From contig OZ251539.1 in NCBI GenBank assembly GCA_965243135.1, forward strand, positions 3,136,001 through 3,200,000: a stretch of 64,000 nucleotides of DNA, written 5' to 3'. Below the pieces are notes generated by a model. That model was not told where the DNA came from and ran no database searches. It saw only the letters and a list, made by a program, of their open reading frames with translations. Source of the DNA: Alphaproteobacteria bacterium. Its GTDB lineage: Bacteria; Pseudomonadota; Alphaproteobacteria; MPNO01; UBA830. Position numbers and translations under genes: made by a program. Positions 39,116-56,282 of this stretch are shown here, piece by piece; positions within the stretch are counted from its first letter, which is position 1, and each line of letters opens with the position of its first letter.

Positions 39116-40801
39116 ATGACAGATCCCGTCGCCGTCCGCATCCTTCGCAATCGCGTCTCCAGCGTCATGGAGGAAATGGACTATCACTTCTACCGATCCG
39201 GGTACTCCACGATCGTCCGGGAATCCAGGGATTTCAGCTGCGTTGTCGCCGACCGCAACGGACGCCTGGCGGCGGCGCCGCCGATGTTCTTCCACGGGCC
39301 GGTCTATTATCACCTCGTCCAGCGCGTTCTGGAGCTTTACGGGGAGAACGGCCTCGCCGACGGCGATTACCTCGTCTGCAATCATCCGTACGAAGGCAAC
39401 CTGCCCCACGTTCCCGACATGGCGATCGCCGCTCCCGTCTTTCACGGCGGGCGACTCGTCGCCTTCGCGGCGAGCGTCGCCCACAAGGCGGACATGGGCG
39501 GAGCGGTTCCCGGCAGCGCCTGGGGCCAGGCGACGGAACTGTTTCAGGAGGGGCTGCTTCTGCCGCCCCTCAAGATCGTCCGCGCCGGCGTTCCGAACCG
39601 CGACCTCGAACGCCTGATCGGCGCCAACTCTCGCGCGCCCGAACTGGTGCTGGGCGACATGCGGGCCCAGATCGGCGCGGTCGGAATCGGACGACGGCGC
39701 GTCGAGGCGCTGTGCCGCCGGTTCGGAGCGGACGCCTTCGCCGCGACGATGAAGGCCGTGATCGACGCGTCGGCCCGAAGTTTCAAGGCGGCGGTCGAAC
39801 GCCTGCCCGAGGGCGAACACGCCTCGGAAGGCTTTCTCGACGGCGACGGCGTCGACCGCGCCGCGCGGGTTCGCCTGCACGTCAGAATCGCCGTCGCGAA
39901 CGGGCGGGTGGAGTTCGATTTTTCCGGCTGTTCGGGCCAGACGCGGGGCCCCGCCAACCTGCGCCTCGCCATGGTCGAGGCCTGTTGCTTCTACTGCCTG
40001 ACGGGGTTTCTCGACCCCGAACTCCCGTACAGCGACGCCGCGAGGGACCTCGTGAGGTTCGTCTTCGCGCCCCGCTCCGTCCTCAACCCCGAACTGCCCG
40101 CCCCGTGCTCGTCCTACATGAAGACTTGCCACAAGCTGGTCGACGTCGTCCTGCAGGCGCTCGATCCGTTCATGCCCGGCCGGGCGATCGCCAACGCCGG
40201 CGGCAGCGGCGGCAGCATCGTCATGGCGTGGCCCGACCGCGAGCCGGGCCGCGGCAACCAGTACGAGATCTTCGGGTCCGCCTACGGCGCGGGAAAGAAC
40301 AACGACGGGGCGACCGGCGTTTCAACTCACCTCGCCAATCTCTACTGCACGCCCGTCGAGATCGTCGAATCGGAGTTCCCCTGCCGCGTCGTCCGCTACG
40401 AGCCGGTTCCCGACACCGGCGGCAACGGCGAGTTCCGCGGCGGGTTGTCCGTCCGGCGGGATTACGAACTGCTTGCGCGCGCCAGCGTCGTCTATCGCGC
40501 CGACCGGGCGGTCGTGCCGCCGGCCGGCCTTGCCGGCGGCGGCGACGGCGCCCCCAGCAGGTTCCTTCTCCATCCCGATACCCCGCAGCAAAGGCAGCTG
40601 CCTTCGTCTTTCCGCGAGGAATTCGCGCCGGGAACCCGCTTCAGCCTGCGCAGCGCCGGAGGCGGCGGTTACGGCGACCCGGCCCGCCGTTCGCCGGCCG
40701 CCCGCGCCCGCGACCTTGCGGAAGGCTACGCGACGAAGGCGGATGACGGCGTATCGAGGCTCGCGTTTGCCGAGGAAAAAGACGCGCGCCGCGGCGAATG
40801 A
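39116..40801 (+). CDS. Hydantoinase B/oxoprolinase family protein
   Basis: RSGYSTIVRESRDFS, NHPY.G..HVPD, HKADMGG, PVEIVESEFP, GGGGYGDP. Confidence 0.92.
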   Translation: MTDPVAVRILRNRVSSVMEEMDYHFYRSGYSTIVRESRDFSCVVADRNGRLAAAPPMFFHGPVYYHLVQRVLELYGENGLADGDYLVCNHPYEGNLPHVPDMAIAAPVFHGGRLVAFAASVAHKADMGGAVPGSAWGQATELFQEGLLLPPLKIVRAGVPNRDLERLIGANSRAPELVLGDMRAQIGAVGIGRRRVEALCRRFGADAFAATMKAVIDASARSFKAAVERLPEGEHASEGFLDGDGVDRAARVRLHVRIAVANGRVEFDFSGCSGQTRGPANLRLAMVEACCFYCLTGFLDPELPYSDAARDLVRFVFAPRSVLNPELPAPCSSYMKTCHKLVDVVLQALDPFMPGRAIANAGGSGGSIVMAWPDREPGRGNQYEIFGSAYGAGKNNDGATGVSTHLANLYCTPVEIVESEFPCRVVRYEPVPDTGGNGEFRGGLSVRRDYELLARASVVYRADRAVVPPAGLAGGGDGAPSRFLLHPDTPQQRQLPSSFREEFAPGTRFSLRSAGGGGYGDPARRSPAARARDLAEGYATKADDGVSRLAFAEEKDARRGE

Positions 40802-41793
40802 CCGCGCGCGCAAGAGGCGCGACGCAAAACTGGAACGATCGAAAGTTGGCCTTCGAGGCCGCGAAGGCGGCCAACAGGCTGAGCGGCGCTGAAGGTCGCA
40901 CGCCCCAGTCGCCCGATCTCAGAGAGTTACGCCTGACGCGCTCCGGAGCGGGCGGTTCTCTCCGGTTTCTCGTTGAGCCGGCCCGCCCCGCGAGGTCCGT
41001 GAAATTTCTTGTCGGACGCCGGATTTCGCCCGTCATCCGGCTCCCTTCACGGATGCATCGCGCTCCGCGCCGGCCAACGGCTGCATGCGCTTGACGGCAT
41101 GGCGTTCAGCCGCGAGGCGGGCGCCCTTGAGTTTTCGGCGCGCATTGGATGCCGGAAAAGAGAACTTTCGGTCGGCGAGAGCGGAGAGCGTCGCCGAGCG
41201 TTTCCTGGACGCGCTCGCGGGCTGACCGGCGAAGATCTCGCTGCATCGACGGCGCAATAGGAGATCCCTGCCCGACATGCGCCACGGCGCACTGCCGGGC
41301 GAACGAGAACGTCCTCGACAAGTTTCGCGAGGGGCCGGCCGTCGCGGTCTCCATGCTGTCGCGCTGCCGAACCCAAGGAAGACGCCTGCATCGCCAGCCC
41401 GACAACTTCGACGACCTGCCGACCTGCGTCCGTTACAAGGATCCCGGCAGACCGAAGCGCGAGCGCTGCGATTGTTCGCAAAGTTCGGCGACGAAATGCA
41501 GGCGCTTTCCAGGACAGGATCTCGTGCATCCTGTTCGCCATTTTCGCCAAGAAGCGGCAGGGTGCGCCTCCCTCGTTCTCGCAAACACGGAATTTTTTTG
41601 CGAACCCAGACGACCGGGCTTGATTCGGTGCGCGACAATCATATATGTTTCGAACGTCGCCCAAAGGGATGGCCGAACGTGGCCTTCAGGGATCTTTCGG
41701 ATGACTGATTCCCTGCAGGTTCGGCGTTGAGCCGAAATTCTGCTCGTCCCGGCGGATCGATTCAATCAACTCCGCATCCGGGAGATCCATCTC

Positions 41794-44700
41794 ATGTCTC
41801 AGAAGACGACCGTGGCGGTTCTCGTCGCCACCGCTAATCGACCGACTCTGCTGAAAAGTCGGGCCCTTCCCTCGATCGCAGAACAATCCCGGCCGCCGGA
41901 CCGCGTGGTCATCGTCGACGATTCGACCGACGACATGGCCGAACATATCGAGAGGCTGGTCCAAGGCTGGCAACCTCCGGGAATCGCTGTCGATTTCCTG
42001 CGCAACCGGCGGACGAAAGGCGCGGCCGGCGCATGGAATTCCGGTCTGGATCATTTGCTGCGGACATGCGGCGATCCGGCCCTGCTCTACGTCGCGATCC
42101 TTGACGACGACGACCGATGGGCGCCGCGCCATCTGGAGACATGCCTGGAAGCCGCGGATAATTTCGGCTTCGAGGTGATCGCGGCGCCTTTTCGGAGAAT
42201 CGAGGAAGGCGCCGAACCGAGCTTGACGATTCCGCCGCCGAACCTCGACGAGGCGGATTTTCTGGCGGGGAATCCCGGCATCCAGGGCAGCAATCTGGTC
42301 ATCCGTCTGGACGCGCTGCTCGAAGCCGGGCTGTTCGACGAGTCGCTCGCTAGCTGCACGGATCGCGACCTGTGCATCCGTATCTCCGAGTTGCCGAACG
42401 CGCGCTACGGCGTCACGTCCGAGGCAACCGTCGATCATTTCGCCTGCGCGTCGCGGGCGCGCCTGTCCACGCCGGGTTCGGACGCCAAAATAAGGGGATT
42501 GGACCGCTTCTACCGCAAGTACCGGGGCCGCATGTCCGAAGATTTGCGCCGGAAATTCCGGGCGCGGGCGGCTCGGAATTTCGGGTGGGAGGAATCGGCG
42601 CCGAAAGCCATGAACGGAGCCGCCGCGCGCCGCGGACCATCGCCGCCGCGGTCCTCGGCGCCGCCGCAAGCGCCGCCCCATCTGATTGTCGGGATGATCG
42701 CCGACACGGCGCGACTCGAAGACTTGGGTGGTTTGCTCGCGGACCTTCGCGGCCTCGCCGAGGACCCCGAACTTTCGGGCCTCGACGTTCTGATCCTGGA
42801 GAACGGGCAAGGACGGGCGCCCGACGAATCGTTGCGGAGCCTTGTCGAGCGCAAGCGCACGGATGGCCTGCGGGTCCATCTCGTGGACCGCGCACGGCAC
42901 GCCGAGGACGCGAGAAACGCACTTGTCCTCGACGGCGGCGCGGGAGAGGGACGCAGGCTGGCCATAGCTCCCGCTCGAACGGTTCTCCAATCGTATCTGT
43001 ACGCGTTCGCCAAGCGCCGGCCCGGCGCTGTGGTATGGATCGTCGATGACGACATGCGGCTGGATCCGCTCGTCATCGGAAAGGACGGGCGATTGCGGCG
43101 GCAACCCCGGCCGCTCGCGTCGACCCTGCGGGAACTTCGCAGACTCCACGCGGGCGGCAAACTCGACATCGCCATCGGGACGTACGCCGGGGCGCCTCCG
43201 CTGCCGTTCGCGGCGACAGTGCGGGTGCAGCTCGTCGATCTGACCGCGTCGCTCCGGTTGCTGGCGTCGCTGGATCCGAAGGGGATCCTGCCGGACAGCG
43301 GCACGGAGAATGCGAATCTGCGATCCGGCCGGCGCGACTATTTTTACGACCTTTCGCGCGAGGAAACGGATCGCTTGGAAACGCCGTTCTGGATCGTTCC
43401 CGCGTTTCCGGGCGAAACCGTCGGCGAAGCCTTTGAGCGGATTTCCATGACGGCCGAACGTATCCTGGCCGGCGAGCAGATCTTCCGGCCCCTCGCGGCC
43501 ATTGCCGACGCCGACCCTCTGGAGTCGATCGGCGTGGGCCTCCAGCGCGGCGGCAATACGTTCGTGTTCGATGTCGAGGCGTTGAGGCTGGCGCCAAATC
43601 CCTCGCCAACCATCGACGGGCGGCCAAGCCGACGCTCCGACATGATCTGGGCCCTGCTGCAGGAGCGCCGCTTCGGCCGGCGGGTCGCCACCGTGCCGAT
43701 CGCCCTCTATCACGACCGCTCTCGCGTCCTTGCCGGAGAACTGGACGCCGAGCGCATCGTGGACGACGTTCGCGGCTATGCGACGTTTTCGGCTCTCCAG
43801 GACACTCTCGAATCCATTCCCGACGACGGGCGAGGCTCTGTCACGGATAGCTTCGGCCAGATCGAAGGAGGGATCGAACGCTTCACGAATCTTGCGCGCA
43901 AGTACCTTGAAGAACGGCTGGCGGCGTTCCGCCTGTCCTTCTACCGCATCCTCGGCCTGAAACGCGTCCTTCGCAGACTCGTGGACGACGGGGAGATCTG
44001 GTGGCGGGAGGAGCGGTACCGGGACGCCAGAGCGCAGCTCCGAACGTTCTGCGATCGGCTGGACCGCTTCTACGCGATGGAGATTCTGAACCGTATCGAA
44101 CGCGAAGCTGAAGCCTTGCAGGCTCCTCAGATTCGCGAATTTCTCGATCAGCTTCCCAAGGAGATCGAAGCGCATCGGAACCGACTCTCGAAGTTCCCGG
44201 CTCTGGCGCATGGTATCGAGGGCGAAAGAATCCTTAACGCCAAAGCCGTCGCTGCGCGGCTGGGCGGGTCCGCCGATCCTCTCACGGTATTGGGATGCGG
44301 CATGGAAGGCGTGGCGCTCACCGACGGGAAACGGGTGATCAAGGTCTTCGACTACTGGTGGAAGTCGTCGCACGTCATCTCGGCTCCATCGTATCTGCGC
44401 ACGCTCCCAAGCGCGTGGAAGGGCACGCGTTGCCTATATCCCATCCTCGATTTCCGTGAATGGGGATATCGCGCGGTACTGGTCTATCCGTTCGAGGTCA
44501 GCGAACCGTACTCTGGCGGCCACGGGCCGGGCATGGCCGAGTTCCTTGCCGAATGCCGACGGCATGACGTCGTTTGCCGCAACCTCCATCCCGACAACCT
44601 GCGGGTCGTCGATGGGCGGGTCCGGCTGGTCGACTACGGATCGGATATTCGTCCTCTGGAAAAGGAGCGCGAGTTCGCGGCGATGTGCCAACGGGGCTGG

Positions 44701-47043
44701 CTATGTTACCGCTGGGCGAACCGTCCCGACCTCAAATCGATCATGCGTCGGGCCCGAAACGATGCGGCCATCGCCGAACTGGATGGCTTCGAGCGGTTTT
44801 ACGAGGCGGTTCGACGGATGACGGGACTGCAGCGAACGTCGGAGGACATCGTTCTCAAGATGGCCGGTCGACCCGTGCGCGTCCTCGATTACGGGTGCGG
44901 AAGCGGCCGGCTGGCCAAGGCAATGGCGAACCGGGGAGCGCGAGTCCTGGGCTACGACCCCGACCGCGCCCATCGAGCGCGCTGGGATTCGCGTTGCGCG
45001 GCAACGAACCGGTTGCGATTTACGAGCGACCGGGACGAGGCGCTGGCGGCCGGACCGTTCGATCTCGTGATCTGCCGCCGAGTGCTCTGCACCCTCGAGG
45101 ACGATGTCGAATTGCGAGCCGTGTTCGACGACCTGCGGGCCTCGGTAAGCGAGCGCGGCCATGCCATCGTGACCGTATGCGACCCGCACTTCACGTTCGG
45201 CGGTCCGACCCCGGAGGCCGACCGCGAATTGCCGCCCGGGGCACGTTACGAAAGCACTTTCACATGGCGCAAGAGGCTGCGCGCAACGGGACGGGTGCGG
45301 CGCGACGTGCATCGGCCTGAGCGGGCGTTGCGGCGCGAATTCGCCCGTGCGGGTCTTGCGGTGTGCCGCCGTCTCGAAGTGCCGACGGTCGATCTGGAGC
45401 GGTTCGAGCCGGCATCGGATCAATTGGCGTTCGAACTACGGCCGTTGGCCCCCCTTGCCGGAAAGGTCGCGCTGATGGTCAAGGCGTGCGCGATGGAGGC
45501 GAAGACCCTCGACATCCAGCTCCGCCACCTGGTTTCGCAACTCGAAGAGCCAAGAGCGTTCGCCGAGCGGATTCTCGTGATCGATTCCCGCGAGAACGGT
45601 TTTCTCAGACAATACGCGCAGGGCGACCTGCGCAGTCTGCGAGAAGCGGCGCATCGTCTGGCGGAAGCCGGTTGGATCGACCGGATCGTAGAGGGACCCG
45701 GCGACGGCGAGGCCACCGCAGCGCTGCATCGCGCGTGGTTCGGGATTCCGTGCCCGCTGGCGCACGTCGCGACCGGTATTCAGTCAGCTTCGACGTTGAC
45801 GGGTTTCGAGGCATGCACGACGCGCTATGTCCTCCATGTAGACGCGGATGTCATGATCGGCCGTCTGGATCGCAACCACGACTATCTGGCCGAGATGACG
45901 GCGGCGCTGGCCGGAAACCCCGACGCGCTCACAGTGTCGTTCTACATCGCATCCGACCGCGACCGGCCAGTCGGCGCCGATGAAGGGTCCGGTCCATGGC
46001 GCACGGAAACGCGCGCCGGGATGTTGGATCTCTTTCGACTGCGCCGTGCGCGCCCGCTGCCGAACGCGCTCGACGGAAACCGCTTGGCGCTCCCTTGGCA
46101 CAGAGCGTTGGACCAAACCGTCCGGGAAGGGATTGGGCGCTCCTATCGGGGCGGCGACCGCCGGGCCTTCTTCGTGCATCCACCCAACGTGCGCAAGCGA
46201 GATCAGGAAGCGTGGTTCGCGACGCTCGACCGTATCGAACGGGGAACGGTTCCAAGCGTTCAGAAAGATAGAGTGAACTGGACGGGCACCGCCGAGGAAT
46301 GGTCGGGGCCGCAGCGGAACGAACCCTTCGTGTTCGTCGTCTCGGGCCGCAACGTGCCGCCGGGCCGGCTGCGCCGCTGCCTCGACTCGATGATCCGCCA
46401 GCGCGGTCCGCAATGGGGCGCCGTGGTCTTCGACGACGCATCGGAGCCGCGCTTCGCCGATCATTTCGAGATCGCCTGTACGCAGCTCGGAGCGCACTGC
46501 ACGATCGTTCGGAACCGGGTTCGGCGCGGGCTGCTGCCCAACATGGTCGCCGCCATTCGGACGATATGCACGAACCCCGACTCGGTGATCGTGACGTTGG
46601 ATGCGGACGACGCCCTGATCGGCGCGCGGGTCCTGGAGCGGCTGAACGAAGAATACCATCGGGGCGCCGACGTCACTGTGGGTTCGATGCTGCGGACCGA
46701 TCAGGCCGCCGACTATCCTGTGCACTTCGACCGGCCGCGCGAACGGCGAGGCGGCAACATCTGGCAACATTTGCGGTCGTTCAAGAAGCGGCTGTTCGAC
46801 GCCATACCGGACGATGCCCTGCGCCTCGATGGCGGCTACATCGATTTGGCCAACGACTGGGCGTTCATGCTGCCCATCGTGGAGATGGCCCGCAACCCTG
46901 CGCACATCCCAGACCCGCTCTATCTGCACGAACCTTCGGCGACCGGGAAAAGTCCGGCAATAAGGGCGGCCCGCGAAGAAATCGTGGCGCGTATCGTCGC
47001 CAAGAATCGAGTCTTGCCAGACGACGGCCGGGTCGGATCCTGA
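41794..47043 (+). CDS. 1749-aa multidomain protein: GT2 + GT-A-like + kinase-like + class I SAM methyltransferase + GT-A-like + GT2
   Basis: GT2 motifs VVIVDDS, GAWNSGL, ILDDDDRW, FDESL.S.TDRDL; WIVDDDMR (aa ~415); kinase-like LGCGMEG..VIKVFD / CRNLHPDN / LVDYG (aa ~830-950); VLDYGCGSG...FDLVIC (aa ~1030); HVDADV (aa ~1350); VFDDAS / LDADDAL (aa ~1545-1605). Confidence 0.85.
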   Translation: MSQKTTVAVLVATANRPTLLKSRALPSIAEQSRPPDRVVIVDDSTDDMAEHIERLVQGWQPPGIAVDFLRNRRTKGAAGAWNSGLDHLLRTCGDPALLYVAILDDDDRWAPRHLETCLEAADNFGFEVIAAPFRRIEEGAEPSLTIPPPNLDEADFLAGNPGIQGSNLVIRLDALLEAGLFDESLASCTDRDLCIRISELPNARYGVTSEATVDHFACASRARLSTPGSDAKIRGLDRFYRKYRGRMSEDLRRKFRARAARNFGWEESAPKAMNGAAARRGPSPPRSSAPPQAPPHLIVGMIADTARLEDLGGLLADLRGLAEDPELSGLDVLILENGQGRAPDESLRSLVERKRTDGLRVHLVDRARHAEDARNALVLDGGAGEGRRLAIAPARTVLQSYLYAFAKRRPGAVVWIVDDDMRLDPLVIGKDGRLRRQPRPLASTLRELRRLHAGGKLDIAIGTYAGAPPLPFAATVRVQLVDLTASLRLLASLDPKGILPDSGTENANLRSGRRDYFYDLSREETDRLETPFWIVPAFPGETVGEAFERISMTAERILAGEQIFRPLAAIADADPLESIGVGLQRGGNTFVFDVEALRLAPNPSPTIDGRPSRRSDMIWALLQERRFGRRVATVPIALYHDRSRVLAGELDAERIVDDVRGYATFSALQDTLESIPDDGRGSVTDSFGQIEGGIERFTNLARKYLEERLAAFRLSFYRILGLKRVLRRLVDDGEIWWREERYRDARAQLRTFCDRLDRFYAMEILNRIEREAEALQAPQIREFLDQLPKEIEAHRNRLSKFPALAHGIEGERILNAKAVAARLGGSADPLTVLGCGMEGVALTDGKRVIKVFDYWWKSSHVISAPSYLRTLPSAWKGTRCLYPILDFREWGYRAVLVYPFEVSEPYSGGHGPGMAEFLAECRRHDVVCRNLHPDNLRVVDGRVRLVDYGSDIRPLEKEREFAAMCQRGWLCYRWANRPDLKSIMRRARNDAAIAELDGFERFYEAVRRMTGLQRTSEDIVLKMAGRPVRVLDYGCGSGRLAKAMANRGARVLGYDPDRAHRARWDSRCAATNRLRFTSDRDEALAAGPFDLVICRRVLCTLEDDVELRAVFDDLRASVSERGHAIVTVCDPHFTFGGPTPEADRELPPGARYESTFTWRKRLRATGRVRRDVHRPERALRREFARAGLAVCRRLEVPTVDLERFEPASDQLAFELRPLAPLAGKVALMVKACAMEAKTLDIQLRHLVSQLEEPRAFAERILVIDSRENGFLRQYAQGDLRSLREAAHRLAEAGWIDRIVEGPGDGEATAALHRAWFGIPCPLAHVATGIQSASTLTGFEACTTRYVLHVDADVMIGRLDRNHDYLAEMTAALAGNPDALTVSFYIASDRDRPVGADEGSGPWRTETRAGMLDLFRLRRARPLPNALDGNRLALPWHRALDQTVREGIGRSYRGGDRRAFFVHPPNVRKRDQEAWFATLDRIERGTVPSVQKDRVNWTGTAEEWSGPQRNEPFVFVVSGRNVPPGRLRRCLDSMIRQRGPQWGAVVFDDASEPRFADHFEIACTQLGAHCTIVRNRVRRGLLPNMVAAIRTICTNPDSVIVTLDADDALIGARVLERLNEEYHRGADVTVGSMLRTDQAADYPVHFDRPRERRGGNIWQHLRSFKKRLFDAIPDDALRLDGGYIDLANDWAFMLPIVEMARNPAHIPDPLYLHEPSATGKSPAIRAAREEIVARIVAKNRVLPDDGRVGS

Positions 47044-47149
47044 AATGGGACGCAGCGATTTCTTCGGATAGTGCGCTTCCACGAAACCGCCGACCCGCTT
47101 TGAAGGCGCGCGAGTTGATCCTGTGTCGATCACTCAGGAAAAGAGCTGA

Positions 47150-48253
47150 GGTCAAGAATCGGGCGCAATGCGGCGGACGGGGGCGTCGACGAGCCGTTCG
47201 ATGTGATCCGCTCCAAGCTCATGCGCCTCAGCGACCACGGAGGGCAGGCGCAGTACACCCTGAAACGCGATCGCCAATCGCCGCCTTGCGTCGAGTCTTG
47301 CGAGGTCGCCAACCTCGGCCCCAAGCCGTGCACCGAACGGGAAACCGTCGGCGACCCGAAACGCGCAGATCTCGTCCATCCGATGTGCAGTTCGCCGACG
47401 AGGGACGAAGTGCGGCGAACCGTAACCTCGCCCGAGTTCGCGATCAGCTGGGAGGACGGCAACCTTCGGACGAGTATGGTCGGGATCGTGCCGGACGGCA
47501 TCTTGGAATCGCTGCCCAAACGGAGAAAAAACCGCAACGCCGGTTTACAACGCCATCGGCAAGGGAAAACTGCACCGCAGGCATCCTGAAGTGGGAATGG
47601 AACAGTATCGGGATCTTCAGGACGCTCTCGACTATCGGGAAACGGTCTGGGATGAAAGCCCCAACCAATTTCCCACCCTGATTGTTCACGCTCCCCGAGA
47701 CGCTGACCGTTGGTGGCAATACGCGATCCCTCGACACGAAAGGCCGTCGTCTTTTGAGCGTCCATTCGGCGACGAGAGGCGCCGCCACGCCAAAAAGGCC
47801 AAAACCGCCGTCATCCCGGGAAGCGGTGGAAAAAGAAATGACGGCGGTCAAAAGGGGAGCTTGGAGGGTCGCAACATCCCCGCAGGCACTATTTCAGCCG
47901 GTACAACGAGTGGCTCAAGCTCCCCGGCTGCAATATGGAGCCCGGCGACGATGAGAGCAATCGTCCTGGAAAGCGACGGTCGGCGGGAGCCGCACCGCCG
48001 GGAGACATGCCCGAAAGCCGCGGGGACTCTCGGCCTCGCCGCGGACGTCGAAGCCGCTTCTTGCGGGCCCACGCTATCGCAGATACAAGGGGAATTCAGA
48101 CTCAGCTTTCAAGTCGCCGTCAGAATCCGGCGCCGCAGGAGCTTGGATCGACTCGGCCGGGGGAAAACGCGATCCGTCTTCTCCTACCGGGGTGATCCCC
48201 GTTCCCGCTGCATGAAAACGGCAGAAGAACTGAACGAACAGCGAGGTGGATAG
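47150..48253 (+). pseudogene. Probable eroded gene(s) between the GT megaprotein and the helicase
   Basis: Short protein-like + strand segments in shifting frames (DVIRSKLMRLSD, VGIVPDGILESLP, YRDLQDALDYRETVWDE); the last frame stops at a TAG overlapping the helicase GTG. Confidence 0.35.
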
Positions 48254-50838
48254 TGGCCTTATTACGTTACCAAAACCTTGGCGTTCATCGCCCTGACATT
48301 CTTATGGAGCGGTCGGTCAATGGCCTCAAGATATTCTATGACTTTCTAACTCAAGCGAAGAGGTACATGAAGAGCGAGAGCGCCGTGAAGCGGCTCGCGT
48401 GGCGCAAGGGAAACTCCCCCGACGACATTAAGCACAAGGGGCAAGGATCGTGGGTTCAGCTCACCGAGCCCGAAGATCGGCCCGACGAACCGAATGAGAC
48501 GTTCCGTTCTTTTCTCGACGAGAACGTCGAAAAAATCTACGAATGGCAACCGACGGAGGAGCGGCAAGACTCCGCTTTACGTCCGCATGATCGCTTCAAA
48601 TCCGAACACAGAATCCGGATTCTGGATCGGCATCCTGAGACTGAACAGCTTTTTCTCGAACGCGCACCGTCGGAAAACGCACAGCTTCTCCTTGAACCCA
48701 ACACTTACGTCATCGAACGTCAGCGGCGGGCGCTACGAGCGCTTCAGGACGCGCCGACGCAGGATCACCTGCCTCTGCTGCGGCTGTTCGAAAGTCTGGA
48801 TCATGCCGATTGGGAGAACGTATCCCCAGAATACATGGGCGAAGCGGACTGGACGGTGCTGACCGACCTCGACCGTCCCGGTACGAAAGAACAGCGGCGG
48901 TTCGTGGAAACGGCTTTGGGCACGCCGGATTTCGCTTTTCTGGAAGGTCCGCCCGGCTCGGGCAAGACCACGGCCATCTGCGAACTGATTCTCCAGCTGG
49001 CGAAGCGCGGCAAAAGGGTGCTGCTCTGCGCGTCCACCCACGTCGCCGTCGACAACGTGCTTGAGCGTCTGATGGACGGTGGCAATCCCCACCGCGATCT
49101 CATGATCCCGGTCCGCATCGGCGACAGGAGAAGAGTCTCGGACAAGGCGCGGCCCTGGCAAATCGAGAAGTTCGTCAGGACAGAGAGGAAGAGGATTCTA
49201 GGCGGGATCGACCGCGCCGAACCGCTCACGCGTTCCCGAGCGGCACTGCGCGAATTGTTGCGACAAGGAGACGAAACCATCGAACGCATGGTGCTCGACG
49301 CTGCCAATCTCGTTTGCGGCACTACCATCGGCATTCTGCAACACCCGGACATCAAGAAACGCGGCAAGGAACGCCGCGGTACCGTTCCCGAATTCGATAT
49401 TCTCATCATCGACGAGGCGTCGAAAACGACATTTCAGGAATTTCTCGTTCCCGCGTTATGGGCGAAACGCTGGATGATCGTGGGCGACGCGAAACAGCTT
49501 TCTCCATATGTGGACGACGAAGCGTTGGCCGTGAATATCGAAACATGTCTCCCGGAGAAATATAGGCGTGATGCTTGCGTTGACGCTTTCCTGGCCGCCA
49601 ACGACTCTCGCCCACGCGTCGCAGTGGTCGTAACGGATTCCGAGGCGGCCAAGCGCGCTTACAAGGCTGAATGCGCCGAGCGACCGGTAAAGGTCGTCGA
49701 CAGCGATGAAGCCACCGGGGGCGAATTGTGGGACGCCTCCATCGTCATCGGCGGGAGAGACAGCTTGCAGCAAAGATCGGGCGAATTGCCCCTGGACGTT
49801 GCCTCGCTTCGTTGCGCCGACGGCGAATTTCCGGTTCTCCGTCGGCGCGTCGATGCTTGGCTGCGTCTTTCCGGGCAAGACCGGGAGGAACAATCGGAAT
49901 GGGCGGAAGAGGTCGGCTGGCGACTGGCGCGGTTGTACGAGCAGCGGTTTACCGAGGAAGACAATGGAAAGACGAGGGCAGCGCAGCTCAAAGAACAAAT
50001 CGACAATCTTCTTCCCACGGAGGGCGATAAAGAGGTCTGGAAGAACATCGACAGGGTCAGACGCGTCGCTTTGCCGTCGGTGCTTGAATCTCTGCAATCC
50101 GGCTTCGAACGCGATGACCGCCAGCGCCGCGGGACAGCGCTTTCCGACGGTCTGCCCGATCACGTATTCAGACCGCGCCATGTGCTGCTCAGAACCCAGC
50201 ACCGGATGCATTCGGAGATAGCGCAGTTCTCGCATGACCACGTCTACGACAAAGAGGCGCTCCGCACGCCGGATGACATGGATCGAGAACGAGGCTGGAG
50301 CTACGGCCGTTACGATTATCGGGCCGTATGGATCGACGTGTCGGCGGACGGCGCTTTCAGCAACAACCGCAACGAGAAAGAGGCGCGCAAAGTCGTCGAG
50401 GAGCTCCGCCATTTCGACGAATGGGCGAAGGCCAACCGCAGGAGCGACGGTTCGCCATGGAAAGTCGCCGTTCTGACGTTCTACCGCGGCCAGGAGCGCG
50501 AAATCCGGAAGCATCTGCAGCGCTGGACGGGATCGGCTTCGGCCATGCGTCATTTCCGTCGCGGACCGGGAGGTCGCACGCATATAACCATCGAGCTTTG
50601 CACCGTCGATCGTTTCCAGGGCCACGAGGCCGACCTTGTCCTGATCAGTTTCGCCAACCGGCGGTCGACCAGCTTTCTCGAAAGCCCGAACCGCCTCAAC
50701 GTCGCGCTGACCCGCGCGCGTTACCAGCGGGTGGTCATTGGGGATCGCACTGCGATGCAACGCGCCAGGAACGGCGCGCTCCGCGAGTTCGCCAAACATG
50801 AGAAATGGGAACGCGATATGGGAAGGACGAGGGGATGA
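48253..50838 (+). CDS. Upf1/DNA2-like superfamily 1 helicase (AAA_11/AAA_12)
   Basis: EGPPGSGKTT, LLCASTHVAVDNV, IIDEASK, VGDAKQLSP, LRTQHRMH, LTFYRGQ, TVDRFQGHEAD, NRLNVALTRAR; start GTG 48253 (RBS GAGGTG) or ATG 48368. Confidence 0.92.
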   Translation: MALLRYQNLGVHRPDILMERSVNGLKIFYDFLTQAKRYMKSESAVKRLAWRKGNSPDDIKHKGQGSWVQLTEPEDRPDEPNETFRSFLDENVEKIYEWQPTEERQDSALRPHDRFKSEHRIRILDRHPETEQLFLERAPSENAQLLLEPNTYVIERQRRALRALQDAPTQDHLPLLRLFESLDHADWENVSPEYMGEADWTVLTDLDRPGTKEQRRFVETALGTPDFAFLEGPPGSGKTTAICELILQLAKRGKRVLLCASTHVAVDNVLERLMDGGNPHRDLMIPVRIGDRRRVSDKARPWQIEKFVRTERKRILGGIDRAEPLTRSRAALRELLRQGDETIERMVLDAANLVCGTTIGILQHPDIKKRGKERRGTVPEFDILIIDEASKTTFQEFLVPALWAKRWMIVGDAKQLSPYVDDEALAVNIETCLPEKYRRDACVDAFLAANDSRPRVAVVVTDSEAAKRAYKAECAERPVKVVDSDEATGGELWDASIVIGGRDSLQQRSGELPLDVASLRCADGEFPVLRRRVDAWLRLSGQDREEQSEWAEEVGWRLARLYEQRFTEEDNGKTRAAQLKEQIDNLLPTEGDKEVWKNIDRVRRVALPSVLESLQSGFERDDRQRRGTALSDGLPDHVFRPRHVLLRTQHRMHSEIAQFSHDHVYDKEALRTPDDMDRERGWSYGRYDYRAVWIDVSADGAFSNNRNEKEARKVVEELRHFDEWAKANRRSDGSPWKVAVLTFYRGQEREIRKHLQRWTGSASAMRHFRRGPGGRTHITIELCTVDRFQGHEADLVLISFANRRSTSFLESPNRLNVALTRARYQRVVIGDRTAMQRARNGALREFAKHEKWERDMGRTRG

Positions 50839-51941
50839 ACAAGCATGTCGTTTTGAAAAGACGGATCGCCATACGGGGCTGGCGCGTGGTCGGATATGTC
50901 TCCAAGGCGGACAAGCGGAAGGAACTCGAGCCGATTCTGGAGCGCGCCCGCGAAACGGGCGGGACGGACGCCGATGATGTGGCCCGGCATCTGCTTTTCG
51001 AGTCCTCCCGCAAGGTCGTCGCGCAGAGGCTTCTCCGCATCGGGAGAGTATTAAATCTCCTGGAAGAAAATGGCAGAAAATATAGGCTGACCGCGGACGG
51101 CGAGAGAGCCATCGACACCGGCAATGTGTTCGTGCCGGAGCATGGCGCATGGACCGTATGGGTGAGCGAAGATCCGTTGCTCCCGTCTCCCGTCCTGAGA
51201 ATCGACGCTTGGGAAGAACTTGACGCCCTTACCGAGAGCCGGAACCGCCGGGACGCGGAAAAGAAGCGATCGTTCGAGCCGTTGCCGGACATAATTCGCG
51301 AGGTCCAGGAAACGGAAGTCACGCCGCCCGCTTCCGGAGACGGCGTCGCGGTTCGTGTCGGTGAACTGGAGGAGAACGTTGAAGCGGTTTCCTCCGGCGA
51401 ATCCCTGAACCTGATATGGAGCGTCCATGAGCGCCGATTGCGCCTGCAGGGAAAGTGGGACAACAAGACGGTCGACTTCGAACTGGAGGCTCCCGAAACG
51501 CCGCCCGACGAGTTATGGGAAGCTCTTCTTGCCGGCGAAGGGCTATTGAACGATTGGGAACGGCATGCGTTGCGCGTTTCCTTCGCGGAAACGACCGAGA
51601 GCGAACGAGAAAGCATGTCTCGCGATTTGGAGATTCCGAAGCCGTCCGTGCCCCGTTTCGGGGAATTCGAGCCTCTTACGGTTCCGGAGATAGCCATCGC
51701 GGCCCGCTCGCGCGACGATGCCCGCGATTGGTCCGCCTGGCGCCTGCGAACGCGCATCCGAGACTTCGCCACGTCGGAACGTTATGACGAGTGGCGGAAA
51801 GAGGCTGCGGCGCCGTTCGTCGAACACCGCCCGGAGCTTCCCGCCAGGGCCGAACTCGCCGCCGAAGAATGGGCAAACGCCGGCGACAGGCCCGCTCCCC
51901 GAGCATGGCATCTCGTCGCGGCCGAGGACTGGAGACTGTAA
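50835..51941 (+). CDS. Hypothetical protein, coupled between the helicase and the PLD; possible N-terminal winged helix
   Basis: ATGA overlap with the helicase stop; LLEENGRKYRLTADGERAI resembles a wHTH wing; acidic C-terminal half. Confidence 0.8.
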   Translation: MNKHVVLKRRIAIRGWRVVGYVSKADKRKELEPILERARETGGTDADDVARHLLFESSRKVVAQRLLRIGRVLNLLEENGRKYRLTADGERAIDTGNVFVPEHGAWTVWVSEDPLLPSPVLRIDAWEELDALTESRNRRDAEKKRSFEPLPDIIREVQETEVTPPASGDGVAVRVGELEENVEAVSSGESLNLIWSVHERRLRLQGKWDNKTVDFELEAPETPPDELWEALLAGEGLLNDWERHALRVSFAETTESERESMSRDLEIPKPSVPRFGEFEPLTVPEIAIAARSRDDARDWSAWRLRTRIRDFATSERYDEWRKEAAAPFVEHRPELPARAELAAEEWANAGDRPAPRAWHLVAAEDWRL

Positions 51942-53464
51942 TGAAACGCGACGAGACTGCCTGGATCAGACACCACTCCCGCGTCGTCGACCAGCGGGAC
52001 TATCGGTTGCCGTCCATGTGGGCGCCGCGTTCGGCGCCGCGTTCGGCGCCGCGCGCGGCCCAATCCGAGAGCGGCCGTACCGTCCACGCGTCCGGGCGAA
52101 ACCGCGAACTCGCGAACCGGATCGTCTCGATGCTGGCCGACGCCGAAGAGCGGGTCGTGTTGTCGAGTTTTCTGCTTGCCGACCGCGATATAGAAGACGC
52201 GATCCTCGCCGCCGCCGCGCGCAAGGTGCGCGTCTACATTCTGCTGGCGTCGGAAGCGCGGCTCGACATCGAGGACAAGGACGGCGAGTTCGAGCAGGCC
52301 ATGCGCGACCAGCATCGGGAGATGCTGTTGCGTCTCGGCGGCCATGCCCTTTTCCGCTCGGCGCCGCACTTCCACGCGAAGTTCGTCCTGGCCGACCCCG
52401 GCGGCGGCGGCGGCGCCGGTCTCCTGCTCACAGCGAACCTCACCAGGGAAGCGCTCCAACGCAACGAAGAGCTGGGCGTGGAGTTGACTCCCGAAGAAGT
52501 GAAGGAAACGTTCGCGCTTGCGCGTTGGGCGTTCTGGGAGTACGCCGAGCATGAATTCGTCGACCCGACGGATCGCTTCAAGTCGGTCAAACCTTTGGGA
52601 TCGGTGGACCATCCGGAACCGTCGTCCCACGTTCCGGCGACGACGTCCGAATCCCGGGAGCTGCTCGCCGAAGCCACGCGTCTCGTCGAGGCCGCTTCCG
52701 GGAAACTCGTCGCCGCCAGCTTCGGATGGGACAAGGACCACGAGATCGTCGAGTTCCTGCGCGTCCGCGCCCGCGAGGGCCTTGACGTGACGGCGCTCGC
52801 CCGCATACGGCCAAGCCAGATGCCTGCGCTTCTCGCCCTCGCCGAATCGGGAGTGCGCGTCTTCGGTTTCAAATGGCTTCACGCCAAAGCGCTGTGCGCC
52901 GACGGCGACAAGGCGCTCGTCATGTCCGCGAACCTGCAACCCGACGGACTCGACCGCGGTTTCGAGTTGGGCGTGCGGCTGAACGGCGATCGCGCCCTGG
53001 AAGTTCGAGATCGACTGGATCAATGGTCCAAGGCTGCCCGTTTTGAACTCCTCGCAGCCCCGACGCTGGGCGACATCCAGGGCGACGCCTTGGCATGGCG
53101 CGAGAACCGACTTGACGAGATGACGGTCGAAGCCGAGCGCCGCATCGACCTCGGGCCGGTCACGGCGGAGTCCGCGGACAGACTGGACGACGCCGCGCCT
53201 CCGGATCCCCCGCCCGCAGGCGATTTACCCGAACTCGCGCACAGCGTCGTTTACGAATGGCGAACGCAGGCTCCCGTTCTCGCCAAGAATGCGAAGCCGG
53301 TGCTCCACGCCGGGAAGAACGAAAAACCCGCTCCCTACGACCTTCCGGTATTCGATGAACCGGGCGGCAGACGCGTCGTGGCGGTCGACTCCGAATTGCA
53401 GATACCCGAGGCACAGGAGATAGCCGCCAGCGCAAAGGCCGCCGCGATCGTGGTCAAGGAGTGA
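51941..53464 (+). CDS. Phospholipase D-family nuclease with two HKD motifs
   Basis: TAATG overlap; FHAKFVLAD...LLTANLT...NEELGV and LHAKALCAD...VMSANL...FELGV; no signal peptide. Confidence 0.88.
   Translation: MKRDETAWIRHHSRVVDQRDYRLPSMWAPRSAPRSAPRAAQSESGRTVHASGRNRELANRIVSMLADAEERVVLSSFLLADRDIEDAILAAAARKVRVYILLASEARLDIEDKDGEFEQAMRDQHREMLLRLGGHALFRSAPHFHAKFVLADPGGGGGAGLLLTANLTREALQRNEELGVELTPEEVKETFALARWAFWEYAEHEFVDPTDRFKSVKPLGSVDHPEPSSHVPATTSESRELLAEATRLVEAASGKLVAASFGWDKDHEIVEFLRVRAREGLDVTALARIRPSQMPALLALAESGVRVFGFKWLHAKALCADGDKALVMSANLQPDGLDRGFELGVRLNGDRALEVRDRLDQWSKAARFELLAAPTLGDIQGDALAWRENRLDEMTVEAERRIDLGPVTAESADRLDDAAPPDPPPAGDLPELAHSVVYEWRTQAPVLAKNAKPVLHAGKNEKPAPYDLPVFDEPGGRRVVAVDSELQIPEAQEIAASAKAAAIVVKE
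52022..52053 (+). repeat. In-frame 12-bp tandem repeat GCGCCGCGTTCG (about 2.7 copies; APRS APRS APR)
   Basis: Direct reading of 52022-52053. Confidence 0.75.
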
Positions 53465-54004
53465 TAAACCGGAAAGCCGCGCGCGACAGCAGGCCCAAGT
53501 CCGTCGTTTCCTGCTTTTTTGCTTCGGAGATCCGGGGCGAAGACCGGGCCGAGGCCCGGCCGCGAAAGCCGAACGCGACATGCCGCTTGGCCAAAAAAAA
53601 AGCGGCGGGCAGTCCTCTCCGGCAGCATCGCGTTGTGTCGCTGTCAAACTGCAACATGAGGAGCGTCCATGGAACGTTGGCGTACCGGCGAAGCGGAAGC
53701 TTCTCGCGGCGGCCGAGCGAACGCACGTTTCGCCGAACCCGTAGCCGGACGTTGCGCTTCCTGAAGCAACGGCCGAACTGCGTCGCCGCCGGTCAAGCCG
53801 TTCGTCAATCGTCGGAAGAACGACCCGCCTGTCCGTGCCGTTGAGCGCCGCCAACCTTCAGGAAGGAGGCGGGCGACGCGACGGCGCGCGGCAAAAGGCG
53901 GCGAACCGCAAAAGATCGCGACGGCGCGAACGCCTCGCTTTGACGGCCCTTGCGACGATGCCTATCTTCCGGCGCGATCCGTCTCCGCAAGCGAAAGGGC
54001 GCAG

Positions 54005-54772
54005 ATGTACCTGCTGAGCATCGAGGGCCGCGTCGTCATCGTGACCGGCGGCGGCAAGGGCATCGGGCGCGTCTACTGCCGCGAACTGGCGAAGGCCGGA
54101 GCGAGAGTCGTGGCCGCCGACATCGACCGCGACGCGAACGAAGACACGGTCGCTGAGATCAGGGCCGCCGGAGGCGAGGCCATCGCGGCGACGACCGACG
54201 TCTCCGACGAAGGACAGACCGTCGAAATGGCGCGCAGAACCGTCGAAGCGTTCGGCCGCATCGACGGACTGGTCAACAACGCCTCGCTCATGAGCGTGCT
54301 CGAACGCCGCGACTGGAACCTTATCCCGGTCGACGAGTGGGACCGCGTCATGGAGGTCAACCTTCGCGGCATCTTTCTCGGCTGCAAGGCGGTGTTTCCG
54401 CAGATGAAGGATCAGGGCGGCGGCAAGATCGTCAACATTTCCTCGGGCCGGTTCTGGAGCGGCACGCCCAACCGCCTTCACTATTCCACCTCCAAGGCCG
54501 GAGTCATCGGCCTCACCCGTTCGCTGGCCCGCGAGGTCGGACCGGATAACGTCTGCGTCAACGCCGTCACGCCCGGCTTCACGCTTTCGGACACCCAGGT
54601 CGCCTCGTCCGGCGAATACGCTCAGACCAACGCGCCGCCCGAGGACAGATGCATCCGGCGCCACCAGTACCCGGAAGATCTCGCGGGCGCGGTGATGTTT
54701 CTGCTGTCGCCGGGGAGCGACTTCATCTCCGGACAGACCCTGAACGTGGACGGCGGCCAGCACATGCATTGA
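54005..54772 (+). CDS. SDR family NAD(P)-dependent oxidoreductase
   Basis: TGGGKGIG, LVNNA, YSTSK catalytic motif, GQTLNVDGG. Confidence 0.93.
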   Translation: MYLLSIEGRVVIVTGGGKGIGRVYCRELAKAGARVVAADIDRDANEDTVAEIRAAGGEAIAATTDVSDEGQTVEMARRTVEAFGRIDGLVNNASLMSVLERRDWNLIPVDEWDRVMEVNLRGIFLGCKAVFPQMKDQGGGKIVNISSGRFWSGTPNRLHYSTSKAGVIGLTRSLAREVGPDNVCVNAVTPGFTLSDTQVASSGEYAQTNAPPEDRCIRRHQYPEDLAGAVMFLLSPGSDFISGQTLNVDGGQHMH

Positions 54773-54818
54773 AGCCCGGTTCCGCGGCATGAGGACCGGA
54801 AAGGACGAGGAGAACGCG

Positions 54819-56282
54819 ATGCCGGAAGGCAGGGGTTACGGCGAATACGATCGGCCGCACGAGGACCTGCGCGAATGGATCGAACGCGCGGAAAATCTGG
54901 GCGAGCTGATGCGCATCGACGGCGTCGACTGGAACCTGGAAATGGGTTCGGTCGCCGAGATGATCTATCACGCCAAACCCGACAACCCGCCGGCGATTCT
55001 GTTCCAGAACGTTCCCGGCTACCCGTCCGACTACAGCGTTCTGTCGGGCGCGACGAATTCCATGAACAGGCTTGCGATGACGCTGGGTTTCCCGAAGCCC
55101 GACGGCCCGCTCGACGTCGTGCAGTGCTACCGCGACCGCCTGAAGGACTTCGAGATCGTCCCGCCCCGCGAGCTGAACGCCGGCCCGGTGATGGAGAACG
55201 TCGACCGGGACGGCGAGGTCGACGTCTACAAGTTCCCGATCCCGTTCCTGCACGAGGAGGACGGCGGGCGATATTTCGGAACGGCGGATCTGGTCACGAT
55301 CCGGGATCCGGACAGCGACTGGGTCAATCTCGGAACCTACCGGGTGATGGTCCACGACAGGAACACGGTCGGGCTGTGGATGTCGCCCGGCAAGCACGGA
55401 CGGCAGATCCGCGAGAAATACTTCGCGCAAGGAAAGCCCTGCCCGGTCGCGATCAGCGTCGGACAGGACCCCCTCCTTTTCCTGTCGGCGGCGAACGAGG
55501 TGCATTGGGGCACGCCGGAATTCTCGCATGCGGGCGGGCATCGAGGGATTCCCTTCGACATCACCAGAACCGAGCTTCACGGACTGCCGATGGCGGCCGC
55601 GGCGGAGATCGTTCTCGAGGGCGAGATCATGCCCGACGAGAAGCGCGTCGAGGGCCCGTTCGGCGAATGGACCGGCTATTACGCCAGCGCCGAGCGCGAA
55701 GACTACGTCGTCAAAATTCGGCGCGTCTACCACCGCGACCGACCGATCCACACAATGGCGCGGCCGGGGCGTCCTCCGTCCGACTACTCGTTTTCGAAAT
55801 GCACCGTCAAGGCGGCGATGATCTGGGACGACGTGGAAAGAGCGGGACTTCCCGGCGTCCACGGAGTCTGGAGCATGGAGTTCGGCGGCGGACGCATGTT
55901 CAACGTCGTCGCGATCGAACAGAAATATCCCGGCCACGCCCGGCAGGCGCTGCTGCTGACGGCGGGGTCGCACGCGGCCAACTATCTCGGACGGTTCGTC
56001 GTCGTCGTCGATCACGACATCGATCCGACGAGCGTGCACGACGTCATGTGGGCGGTGGCGTCGCGCTGCGACCCGGAGCACGACATCGACATCATTCGCC
56101 GGACCTGGTCGGGTCCGCTCGATCCGATGAAGCGACCGGGCGAGAACATGAACTCGCGCGCGCTGATCGACGCCTGCCGGCCTTTCGAGTGGATCGACGA
56201 ATTCCCGCACGTCGCCGAAGCCAGCCCGGCCGAACGCGAGCGAATTCGGAAGAAGTTCGGCCACCTGCTCGCACGTCTCTGA
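54819..56282 (+). CDS. UbiD-family prFMN-dependent (de)carboxylase
   Basis: HEEDGGRY, NLGTYR, EIVLEG, EGPFGEWTGYY, VVVDHDIDP; RBS GAGGAG before the ATG at 54819. Confidence 0.92.
   Translation: MPEGRGYGEYDRPHEDLREWIERAENLGELMRIDGVDWNLEMGSVAEMIYHAKPDNPPAILFQNVPGYPSDYSVLSGATNSMNRLAMTLGFPKPDGPLDVVQCYRDRLKDFEIVPPRELNAGPVMENVDRDGEVDVYKFPIPFLHEEDGGRYFGTADLVTIRDPDSDWVNLGTYRVMVHDRNTVGLWMSPGKHGRQIREKYFAQGKPCPVAISVGQDPLLFLSAANEVHWGTPEFSHAGGHRGIPFDITRTELHGLPMAAAAEIVLEGEIMPDEKRVEGPFGEWTGYYASAEREDYVVKIRRVYHRDRPIHTMARPGRPPSDYSFSKCTVKAAMIWDDVERAGLPGVHGVWSMEFGGGRMFNVVAIEQKYPGHARQALLLTAGSHAANYLGRFVVVVDHDIDPTSVHDVMWAVASRCDPEHDIDIIRRTWSGPLDPMKRPGENMNSRALIDACRPFEWIDEFPHVAEASPAERERIRKKFGHLLARL

Follow-up and report, generated by a model that had tools for sequence, protein, structure and literature searches.

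The 64,000-nucleotide stretch analysed here (the window: contig OZ251539.1, positions 3,136,001 to 3,200,000, from the genome of an alphaproteobacterium) carries an insertion of about 13.2 kb, at about 40802-54004, that holds four co-oriented genes. The first encodes a glycosyltransferase (GT) megaprotein. After a non-coding spacer follow three coupled genes for a Upf1-like helicase, a protein of no recognised family (hereafter the middle protein) and a phospholipase D (PLD)-family nuclease. An initial annotation had proposed that all four form one Mokosh-related defence system extended by a modification enzyme. Comparison with related loci separates them instead: the three coupled genes recur elsewhere in a conserved four-gene cassette whose fourth member is an RtcR-like regulator, and the GT gene belongs to another gene family with another set of neighbours. 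The four genes are:

41794-47043, + strand: GT megaprotein, 1749 aa; Pfam GT2 (1.3e-28, two stretches) and Methyltransf_23 (1.4e-15)
48304-50838, + strand: Upf1-like superfamily 1 (SF1) helicase, MkoA/CnuH-like, 844 aa from the ATG; Pfam AAA_11 (8.8e-36) and AAA_12 (2.5e-31)
50835-51941, + strand: middle gene, 368 aa; a winged helix, with a beta-rich and helical remainder
51941-53464, + strand: double-HKD PLD-family nuclease, 507 aa; Pfam PLDc_2 (3.1e-19, two stretches)

The helicase, which could also start at a GTG at 48253, retains its Walker A motif (GPPGSGKT, 48946-48969), the DEAS box (49411-49422) and a TRAR motif (50710-50721). Both HxKx4D motifs of the PLD protein are likewise intact (HAKFVLAD, 52373-52396; HAKALCAD, 52880-52903). 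The helicase and middle genes overlap in an ATGA, the middle and PLD genes in a TAATG. Scanning the PADLOC hidden Markov models against the window proteins, with Pfam, NCBIfam and Rfam profile scans alongside, matched the helicase to MkoA (PDLC03920, E = 2.9e-85, profile positions 504-1096 of 1112) and the PLD protein to DrmC (6.2e-19) and to MkoB (7.1e-11, over profile positions 311-599 of 610). No kinase family was among the 17 Pfam matches of the helicase, and its residues 1-199, scanned alone, matched none at E <= 1. The initial annotation had therefore described this part of the locus well: four co-oriented open reading frames (ORFs) on the + strand, translational coupling of the last three, an AAA_11/AAA_12 helicase free of a kinase domain, a PLD protein with two HKD motifs, and kinship of helicase and PLD to Mokosh all hold.

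Its inclusion of the GT as a system component is not supported. Two sets of loci were collected, one around each family. Scanning one genome per species yielded 26 GT loci (44-76% identity), most with 10 kb on either side, and a scan with a 13-sequence alignment yielded 27 metagenome loci of the middle gene. Within the 10-kb range, not one of the 26 GT loci encodes a relative of the helicase, the middle gene or the PLD (tblastn, E <= 0.001), and none of the 27 middle-gene loci encodes a GT relative. The GC content at third codon positions (GC3) also counts for independence of the GT, being 0.77 in this gene as against 0.70-0.71 in the helicase and middle genes. So does a decayed second copy of helicase and middle gene elsewhere in the genome, which has no GT at its side. 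A 1260-bp non-coding spacer (47044-48303, GC 0.608, containing two ORFs without Pfam match) parts the GT from the coupled trio, a point that the initial annotation had not stressed.

The trio, in contrast to its pairing with the GT, is highly conserved. A PLD gene lies 3' of the middle gene in 27/27 loci, and a helicase gene lies 5' of it in 24 (the other three contigs begin within the middle gene); full-length helicase relatives in these 24 loci are 44-68% identical to ours. Clustering of all neighbours returned the helicase, the middle gene, the PLD and an RtcR-like gene as the only families recurring across the 27 loci. The RtcR-like gene encodes a CARF/AAA+/helix-turn-helix (HTH) sigma-54 activator and follows the PLD directly in 20 of the 21 loci with at least 600 bp of sequence 3' of the PLD, the set to which this tblastn count was restricted; L075 alone lacks it. 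Three of the 27 loci (L068, L069 and L070) are identical, and all three are among the 20. The activator matches Pfam Sigma54_activat (6.6e-38) and, end to end, PADLOC RtcR_PspF1 (1.4e-158); its closest named relative is RtcR (NCBIfam RNA_repair_RtcR, 4.3e-52, below the cutoff). The conserved partner of the trio is thus this regulator and not, as first supposed, a modification enzyme.

Promoter sequences fit a regulator of this type. Allowing at most two mismatches to the consensus TGGCAC-N5-TTGCT and leaving out two duplicates of L068, we scanned 15 loci with a complete helicase start and found a sigma-54-type site 78-133 nt before the helicase in nine, against a background of 40 sites in 569,456 nt. 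Near-consensus sites precede the helicase in L057 (for example TGGCACGCGCCTTGCT), L060, L062, L065, L066 and L071. Under generic annotation only, the same four genes also occur on plasmids of Vibrio rumoiensis and Pontibrevibacter nitratireducens, the latter conjugative; carried as it is by plasmids of culturable bacteria, the cassette is therefore clonable. One complete copy lies at NZ_AP018688.1 512-7340. A scan of 47 proteins neighbouring the cassette revealed a defence-island context:

L056: patatin and DncV-like cyclase (CBASS)
L059: HsdM/S/R (type I restriction-modification), directly upstream
L068: two GmrSD genes
L077: Cas3/Cse1/Cas7 (CRISPR-Cas)
L065: SMC/phosphoesterase pair
L057 and L076: integrases

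A literature search returned no paper naming this four-gene combination, though the cassette may figure with other relatives of CnuH in the CoCoNuT supplementary files, which that search did not take in; it is apparently unnamed.

The middle protein is the least familiar member. It matches no Pfam, PADLOC or NCBIfam family, and its own family comprises 406 representative proteins, mostly of about 370 aa. In its AlphaFold model (pLDDT 95.1), residues 26-97 (50910-51125) form a MarR-type winged helix that superimposes on 2x4h_A (Z 11.3, root-mean-square deviation (rmsd) 1.3 over 66 residues) and 5h3r_A (Z 11.0, rmsd 1.8 over 69 residues). The remainder, residues 98-368, was modelled alone (pLDDT 84.9) and gave a best Z of 4.3 with no match of 5 or more (VIA-wide, 48,161 representatives). 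Neither the whole protein nor residues 98-368 gave a Foldseek match in the PDB at E <= 0.001; this lack of a solved relative is not proof of a new fold. In the ESM Atlas only clusters named 'hypothetical protein' came up, PF24409 being a weak lead (0.89), and no phage record encodes the protein.

Modelling the middle protein together with the PLD produced a complex with an ipSAE of 0.80 (0.80, 0.79 and 0.80 in the individual runs), the best of three controls reaching 0.00, with 100% contact agreement between runs and a partner pLDDT of at least 81. Of 157 solved complexes, 116 attained that ipSAE level, as did 2 of 215 mismatched pairs, counts that hold only roughly because our own alignments were used. 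In the model, residues 311-368 of the middle protein lie on residues 70-222 of the PLD, that is, on its first PLD domain, and the interface includes the family-invariant W358, A362, D365 and W366. The conserved C-terminal tail of the middle protein (residues 346-368, 51870-51938) is accordingly predicted by the model to dock on the PLD.

Among described systems, Mokosh type I is the obvious comparison. According to the available text of the Millman preprint (10.1101/2022.05.11.491447), it consists of a helicase gene with a Ser/Thr kinase domain and a PLD gene, and defence against phage needs both the ATP site of the helicase and the PLD site. The window trio likewise pairs a gene for a Upf1-like, COG1112-type SF1 helicase with a separate gene for a PLD-family nuclease, and has the required Walker A and HKD motifs. 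It differs in that the helicase has no Ser/Thr kinase part, leaving positions 1-503 of the MkoA profile unmatched, and in that the PLD leaves positions 1-310 of the MkoB profile unmatched. Mokosh type I comprises two genes, whereas here a third lies between helicase and PLD in all 27 loci and an RtcR-like one comes fourth in 20 of the 21 with enough sequence, with a sigma-54 promoter belonging to the cassette elsewhere.

The second comparison is with the CnuH-CnuE pair found in CoCoNuT systems of types II and III, especially type III-C. As described in the available text of Bell et al. (eLife 2024, PMC11090510), CnuH-family helicase genes typically precede a gene whose product joins a nuclease to an elongated winged helix, the nuclease part in type III-C consists of two PLD domains, and RtcR homologues frequently accompany CnuH-family helicases, for which an RNA target has been proposed. 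The cassette shares the succession of a Upf1-like helicase and a winged-helix-bearing effector partner, as well as the RtcR association. Unlike those systems, it has no McrB-like GTPase (CnuB), McrC-like (CnuC), CnuD or TerY-P genes; none of the four genes of the insertion matches an McrB or McrC family. CnuE, compared here by its description, fuses the winged helix to the two PLD domains, which in the cassette are separate genes, and the RtcR-like gene stands at the 5' end in CoCoNuT, as far as the same text describes it, but at the 3' end here. CnuH, set beside our helicase by description only, is reported in that text to have a large helical insertion after Walker A; in the window helicase, about 150 residues separate Walker A (215-222) from DEAS (370-373), and AAA_12 starts at 627.

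Two further families share single components with the cassette. RtcR-like, non-Rtc CARF activators are often linked to restriction-modification systems, according to the available part of Makarova et al. (2014, PMC4012209), and the fourth gene of the cassette resembles the RtcR and RtcR-like CARF/AAA+/HTH regulators in matching RtcR_PspF1 and in going with sigma-54-type promoters. Unlike in the RtcR regulon, the genes that it accompanies encode a helicase, an adaptor and a PLD and not RtcA and RtcB; unlike in other RtcR-like regulated cassettes, the regulator is absent from both the window and the whole genome. As for DISARM, DrmC models are the best family-level matches of the PLD protein, but NCBIfam DISARM_DrmC_I scores 92.8 bits, under its cutoff of 133. 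The window protein moreover has two HKD domains in 507 aa, and DrmA, DrmB and methylase genes are missing from the insertion.

We then considered how the block sits in its genome. In 4/4 same-genus genomes, the orthologues of its flanking genes HyuB (71-77% aa identity) and UbiD (89-91%) lie only 130-1200 bp apart, and in one of them, G003, a short-chain dehydrogenase/reductase (SDR) orthologue (86%) sits between the two, from which it follows that the roughly 13.2 kb from 40802 to 54004 are extra here. The borders of the insertion are as follows:

39116-40801, + strand: left native flank, hydantoinase B/oxoprolinase; Pfam Hydantoinase_B (3.9e-149)
40802-41793: left spacer, 992 bp, GC 0.634, no gene recognised; not alignable to the same-genus genomes
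41615-41785, + strand: GT leader, about 170 nt, conserved directly 5' of the GT start
53465-54004: right spacer, 540 bp, at the site where relatives have the RtcR-like CARF/AAA+/HTH gene
54005-54772, + strand: right native flank, SDR; identified by Pfam
54789-56282, + strand: right native flank, UbiD-family decarboxylase; identified by Pfam

What the initial annotation had said of this setting is borne out. The codons of the block are richer in A and T than those of its flanks: GC3 is 0.77 in the GT, 0.70 in the helicase, 0.71 in the middle gene and 0.79 in the PLD, as against 0.82-0.88 in five flanking genes (HyuB, SDR, UbiD, HyuA and a symporter). Its neighbours are catabolic (hydantoinase B, SDR, UbiD, glyoxalase, hydantoinase A), and in the bordering spacers, 40802-41793 and 53465-54004, no ORF matches Pfam and no relic is seen at the protein level. 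Two ORFs tried in the left spacer gave no Pfam match, and blastx against the neighbour proteins of the GT and cassette loci found no relic there except in the last 170 bp or so, at the leader. When all three spacers were compared by blastx with the GT and all neighbour proteins, the only convincing relic was a 75-nt piece of a GT gene. No flanking direct or inverted repeat was found at the ends of the insertion, no tRNA in the window, and no Rfam family at E <= 1 between positions 40000 and 55000; sigma-70-like and terminator-like sites showed no excess over the shuffled expectation. A search of 40 relatives returned no full-length relative of the helicase or of the GT, for which the best match was 31% identity over one GT2 domain, and a helicase query did not find the cassette in the four same-genus genomes.

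The arrangement itself is not peculiar to this assembly. In X7, a run from another study, contigs about 94-97% identical to the window span 46415-48369 (GT to helicase) and 52897-55220 (PLD to SDR), the latter with no additional gene. As these contigs bridge both junctions, the arrangement is real and common to a diverged population. This comparison was limited to long contigs, the other mapped contigs being mostly short, mixed metagenome pieces. Several sequencing runs that hold parts of the window are labelled as sponge metagenomes.

The GT megaprotein forms a distinct subject. Its layout runs from a GT2 domain through an unassigned part with an invariant DDD, a helical linker, a kinase-like region, a S-adenosylmethionine (SAM) methyltransferase and a second unassigned part to another GT2 domain. 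Pfam places the GT2 domains at residues 9-138 and about 1523-1652 and the methyltransferase at 1018-1190; residues 290-700, 810-1010 and 1215-1500, scanned singly, match no Pfam family at E <= 1. The methyltransferase of the initial annotation therefore stands, and of its four GT-A domains Pfam gives two. The kinase-like domain that it had described is seen as weak profile matches to protein kinases (ROCK2, TTK; E about 0.003) over residues 860-951. A profile of 21 family members matched methyltransferases in the PDB with E-values down to 2.9e-9, among many others the methyltransferase part of WbdD (4azw/4azs, 5e-5).

In its logic, the megaprotein may resemble the WbdD-type glycan chain terminators that couple a kinase to a methyltransferase. 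Like them, it combines kinase-like and SAM methyltransferase regions with a helical linker, here together with glycosyltransferase domains. Unlike in WbdD, its kinase-like region precedes the methyltransferase and weakly matches eukaryotic-type kinases, with no match to the WbdD kinase seen; and the window lacks ABC exporter and sugar-nucleotide genes. Most likely, the protein builds a glycan or glycoconjugate and caps it by phosphorylation or methylation.

The family is large and widely scattered, with 607 relatives at E <= 0.001, the best 120 of which are 57-84% identical and mostly full length. Members from Alpha- and Gammaproteobacteria, Latescibacterota, Poribacteria and Gemmatimonadota are about 58-78% identical, and the 26 loci also include a Poriferihabitaceae metagenome-assembled genome (MAG), Roseovarius and others. 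Across L029-L053 the identity is 58-76%, and with several of the runs that hold parts of the window labelled as sponge metagenomes, this spread looks like cross-phylum transfer within one habitat. The leader of about 170 nt is found in the same place in three alphaproteobacterial loci (L029, L032 and L033; blastn, 76-78% identity over 168-174 nt), which indicates that the GT travels with its own leader; tblastx adds matches in L030 and L050. The element has no Rfam family and may be a leader or a regulatory element.

The sole recurrent partner of the GT is a SLOG LDcluster4 protein, absent from the window, whose gene lies directly 3' of the GT in eight loci (for example L039:15271-16584, L044:15268-16575, L029:13917-15227 and L032:13686-15215), is translationally coupled to the GT end in several lineages and often ends in a polysaccharide-deacetylase-like part. 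Otherwise, a Pfam scan of 147 of 150 chosen neighbour proteins (L040:5325-8093, L041:2756-7867 and L047:3384-7901 were omitted) showed heterogeneous surroundings of housekeeping and catabolic genes, plus HsdM, SIR2_2, PIN and HEPN proteins and AAA_15/AAA_21 ATPases. Given such defence-like neighbours, the GT itself may have a defence role. Shorter GT variants (L029:10001-13884 and L032:10001-13827) lack an equivalent of residues 1216-1688. Four loci (L035, L036, L051 and L054) have the GT family split into operon genes, and these operons include sulfotransferase, M20 peptidase, PhyH and radical-SAM genes.

Together, these findings lead us to read the block as a single insertion hotspot that received two independent imports. 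One would be a self-contained GT gene that moves between phyla with its own leader of about 170 nt. The other, to which the GT would be unrelated cargo, would be the helicase, middle gene and PLD, that is, three quarters of a conserved cassette of the Mokosh or CnuH-CnuE kind. We put the probability of this explanation as a whole at roughly three in four.

From the gene linkage, domain content and island context described above, and with the regulator missing here, we infer substrates, binding, induction and defence itself along the following lines. In complete cassettes, the RtcR-like CARF/AAA+/HTH activator would sense a nucleotide or RNA-end signal and, once activated, would switch on the sigma-54 promoter before the helicase. 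The Upf1-like helicase would then load on foreign RNA or on RNA/DNA intermediates. The middle protein would act as an adaptor that binds the helicase or nucleic acid by its winged helix and holds the PLD by its conserved C-terminal tail, and the double-HKD PLD would cut nucleic acid.

A number of observations weigh against the two-import explanation. The GT and the trio are co-oriented and lie in one insertion relative to G003, and their arrangement has persisted in the diverged X7 population. The GT-helicase spacer contains, at 47964-48038, the 75-nt relic mentioned above, left by the 5' part (DxD region) of a GT-family gene. Direct repeat D1 pairs it with 42098-42172 of the resident GT at 73% identity, and the GT of L030 shares 78.7% with it over 61 nt (blastn E = 1.9e-7). 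Its greater similarity to the L030 gene suggests repeated traffic through this place, and the relic may reflect a former GT allele other than the present one or a rearrangement here. On the GT side, AAA_15/AAA_21 ATPases occur in five of the GT loci, and HsdM, SIR2_2, PIN and HEPN are also among the GT neighbours. On the cassette side, no sigma-54-type site was found in six of the 15 metagenome loci or in either of the two plasmid loci. We also found no relative of the middle protein of 645-2000 aa and no fused form of middle gene and PLD, which is weak evidence. The locus sets come from pattern-based scans that favour closer relatives, with three identical loci among the 27. Finally, the window copy may be silent, as it has neither a regulator nor a recognisable promoter.

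A more far-reaching version of the two-import explanation goes beyond gene content, and we advance it tentatively, at somewhat less than even odds. The cassette would be an unnamed, inducible Mokosh-CnuHE branch in which a CARF protein that senses a nucleotide or a signal from damaged RNA turns on, through sigma-54, a helicase-guided nuclease, the latter held by an adaptor for whose main body no related structure has been solved. The GT, often with its SLOG partner, would be a separate mobile module, moving from phylum to phylum among sponge-associated bacteria and possibly serving in conflict or host interaction.

The state of the window copy bears on the most serious alternative, namely that the trio is here a dead remnant, unexpressed since the loss of its activator and sigma-54 promoter and bound to decay. 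The regulator present in 20 of 21 relatives is absent, and five RtcR-like proteins used as tblastn queries found no relic of it in 53465-54004 (best E = 0.09). The whole genome (G000) has no CARF orthologue, with AAA+-domain-level matches at two places only. No sigma-54-type site with two or fewer mismatches occurs in 47044-48330, sigma-70-like sites are not enriched, and the flanks are gene-less. Outside the window, at about 5.146 Mb (5146485-5148140; L015:1391-3046), lies a degraded second copy of the cassette, already reduced to fragments of the helicase (residues 435-724, 51-76% aa identity) and the middle gene (residues 305-368, 60%), broken up by an unrelated high-GC3 ORF and with no PLD, regulator or GT nearby. 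The remnant explanation nevertheless appears unlikely to us, since the three ORFs are full length compared with relatives, contain no stops and keep their catalytic motifs, since L075 likewise does without the regulator, and since the regulator-less arrangement is kept at about 94-97% identity in X7. Having lost regulator and promoter, the window copy is either expressed in some other way or decaying. Under the two-import explanation, too, it shows how the cassette erodes, the regulator going first and the second copy being down to fragments.

Distinctly less probable is a function outside immunity, in which the cassette would serve RNA or DNA quality control and repair, or plasmid maintenance, under stress-responsive sigma-54 control. 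The rtcBA operon is under just such control, the closest named relative of the cassette's regulator is RtcR, an RNA-repair activator, and plasmids carry the cassette. RNA surveillance is among the tasks of Upf1-like helicases, as stated in the available text of PMC11090510. The surroundings argue otherwise, with CBASS, type I restriction-modification, GmrSD, CRISPR-Cas and integrase genes as neighbours, as do the patchy distribution of the cassette, missed by the helicase query in four same-genus genomes, and its turnover within this genome; the nearest tested relatives, the Mokosh systems, defend against phage as far as the available text of the preprint (10.1101/2022.05.11.491447) goes.

As to the model from which we started, in which all four genes form one Mokosh-related system whose GT puts sugars or methyl groups on nucleic acid, nucleotides or proteins, either to mark self or to act as a sensor or effector, it can claim the shared orientation and insertion, a GC3 below that of the flanks in all four genes, the arrangement kept in X7, the GT relic in the spacer and a kinase-like region recalling the kinase of type I MkoA, but it is highly improbable in view of the 0/26 and 0/27 co-occurrence, the 1260-bp non-coding spacer before a tightly coupled trio, the RtcR-like regulator as conserved fourth partner and the GT family's own recurring neighbour, SLOG LDcluster4, in eight loci.

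Under the two-import explanation, a false lead, the glycosylating 'extended Mokosh', is thus removed and replaced by a testable one. Upf1-like helicase/PLD immunity would appear here in a four-gene, transcriptionally induced form with an obligatory adaptor and a CARF-type sensor. If the RtcR-like protein responds to products of RNA damage, the cassette would couple RNA-end sensing to a DNA/RNA nuclease with no CRISPR or McrBC component involved. The GT megaprotein, in turn, is a striking case of apparent cross-phylum transfer and worth a separate study.

Some minor observations concern the flanking sequences. The families of the native neighbours show large paralogy in the same-genus genomes G001-G004, with 26-30 UbiD-family and 7-17 hydantoinase B-family matches per genome. 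The GT genes of L030 and L043 likewise adjoin hydantoinase genes, probably by chance. Within the right spacer, the stretch 53613-53827 has copies 67-93% identical at about five other places in the genome, including 3732024-3732322 and 2767314-2767628, and may represent an element, intergenic or regulatory, that is repeated among paralogous operons.

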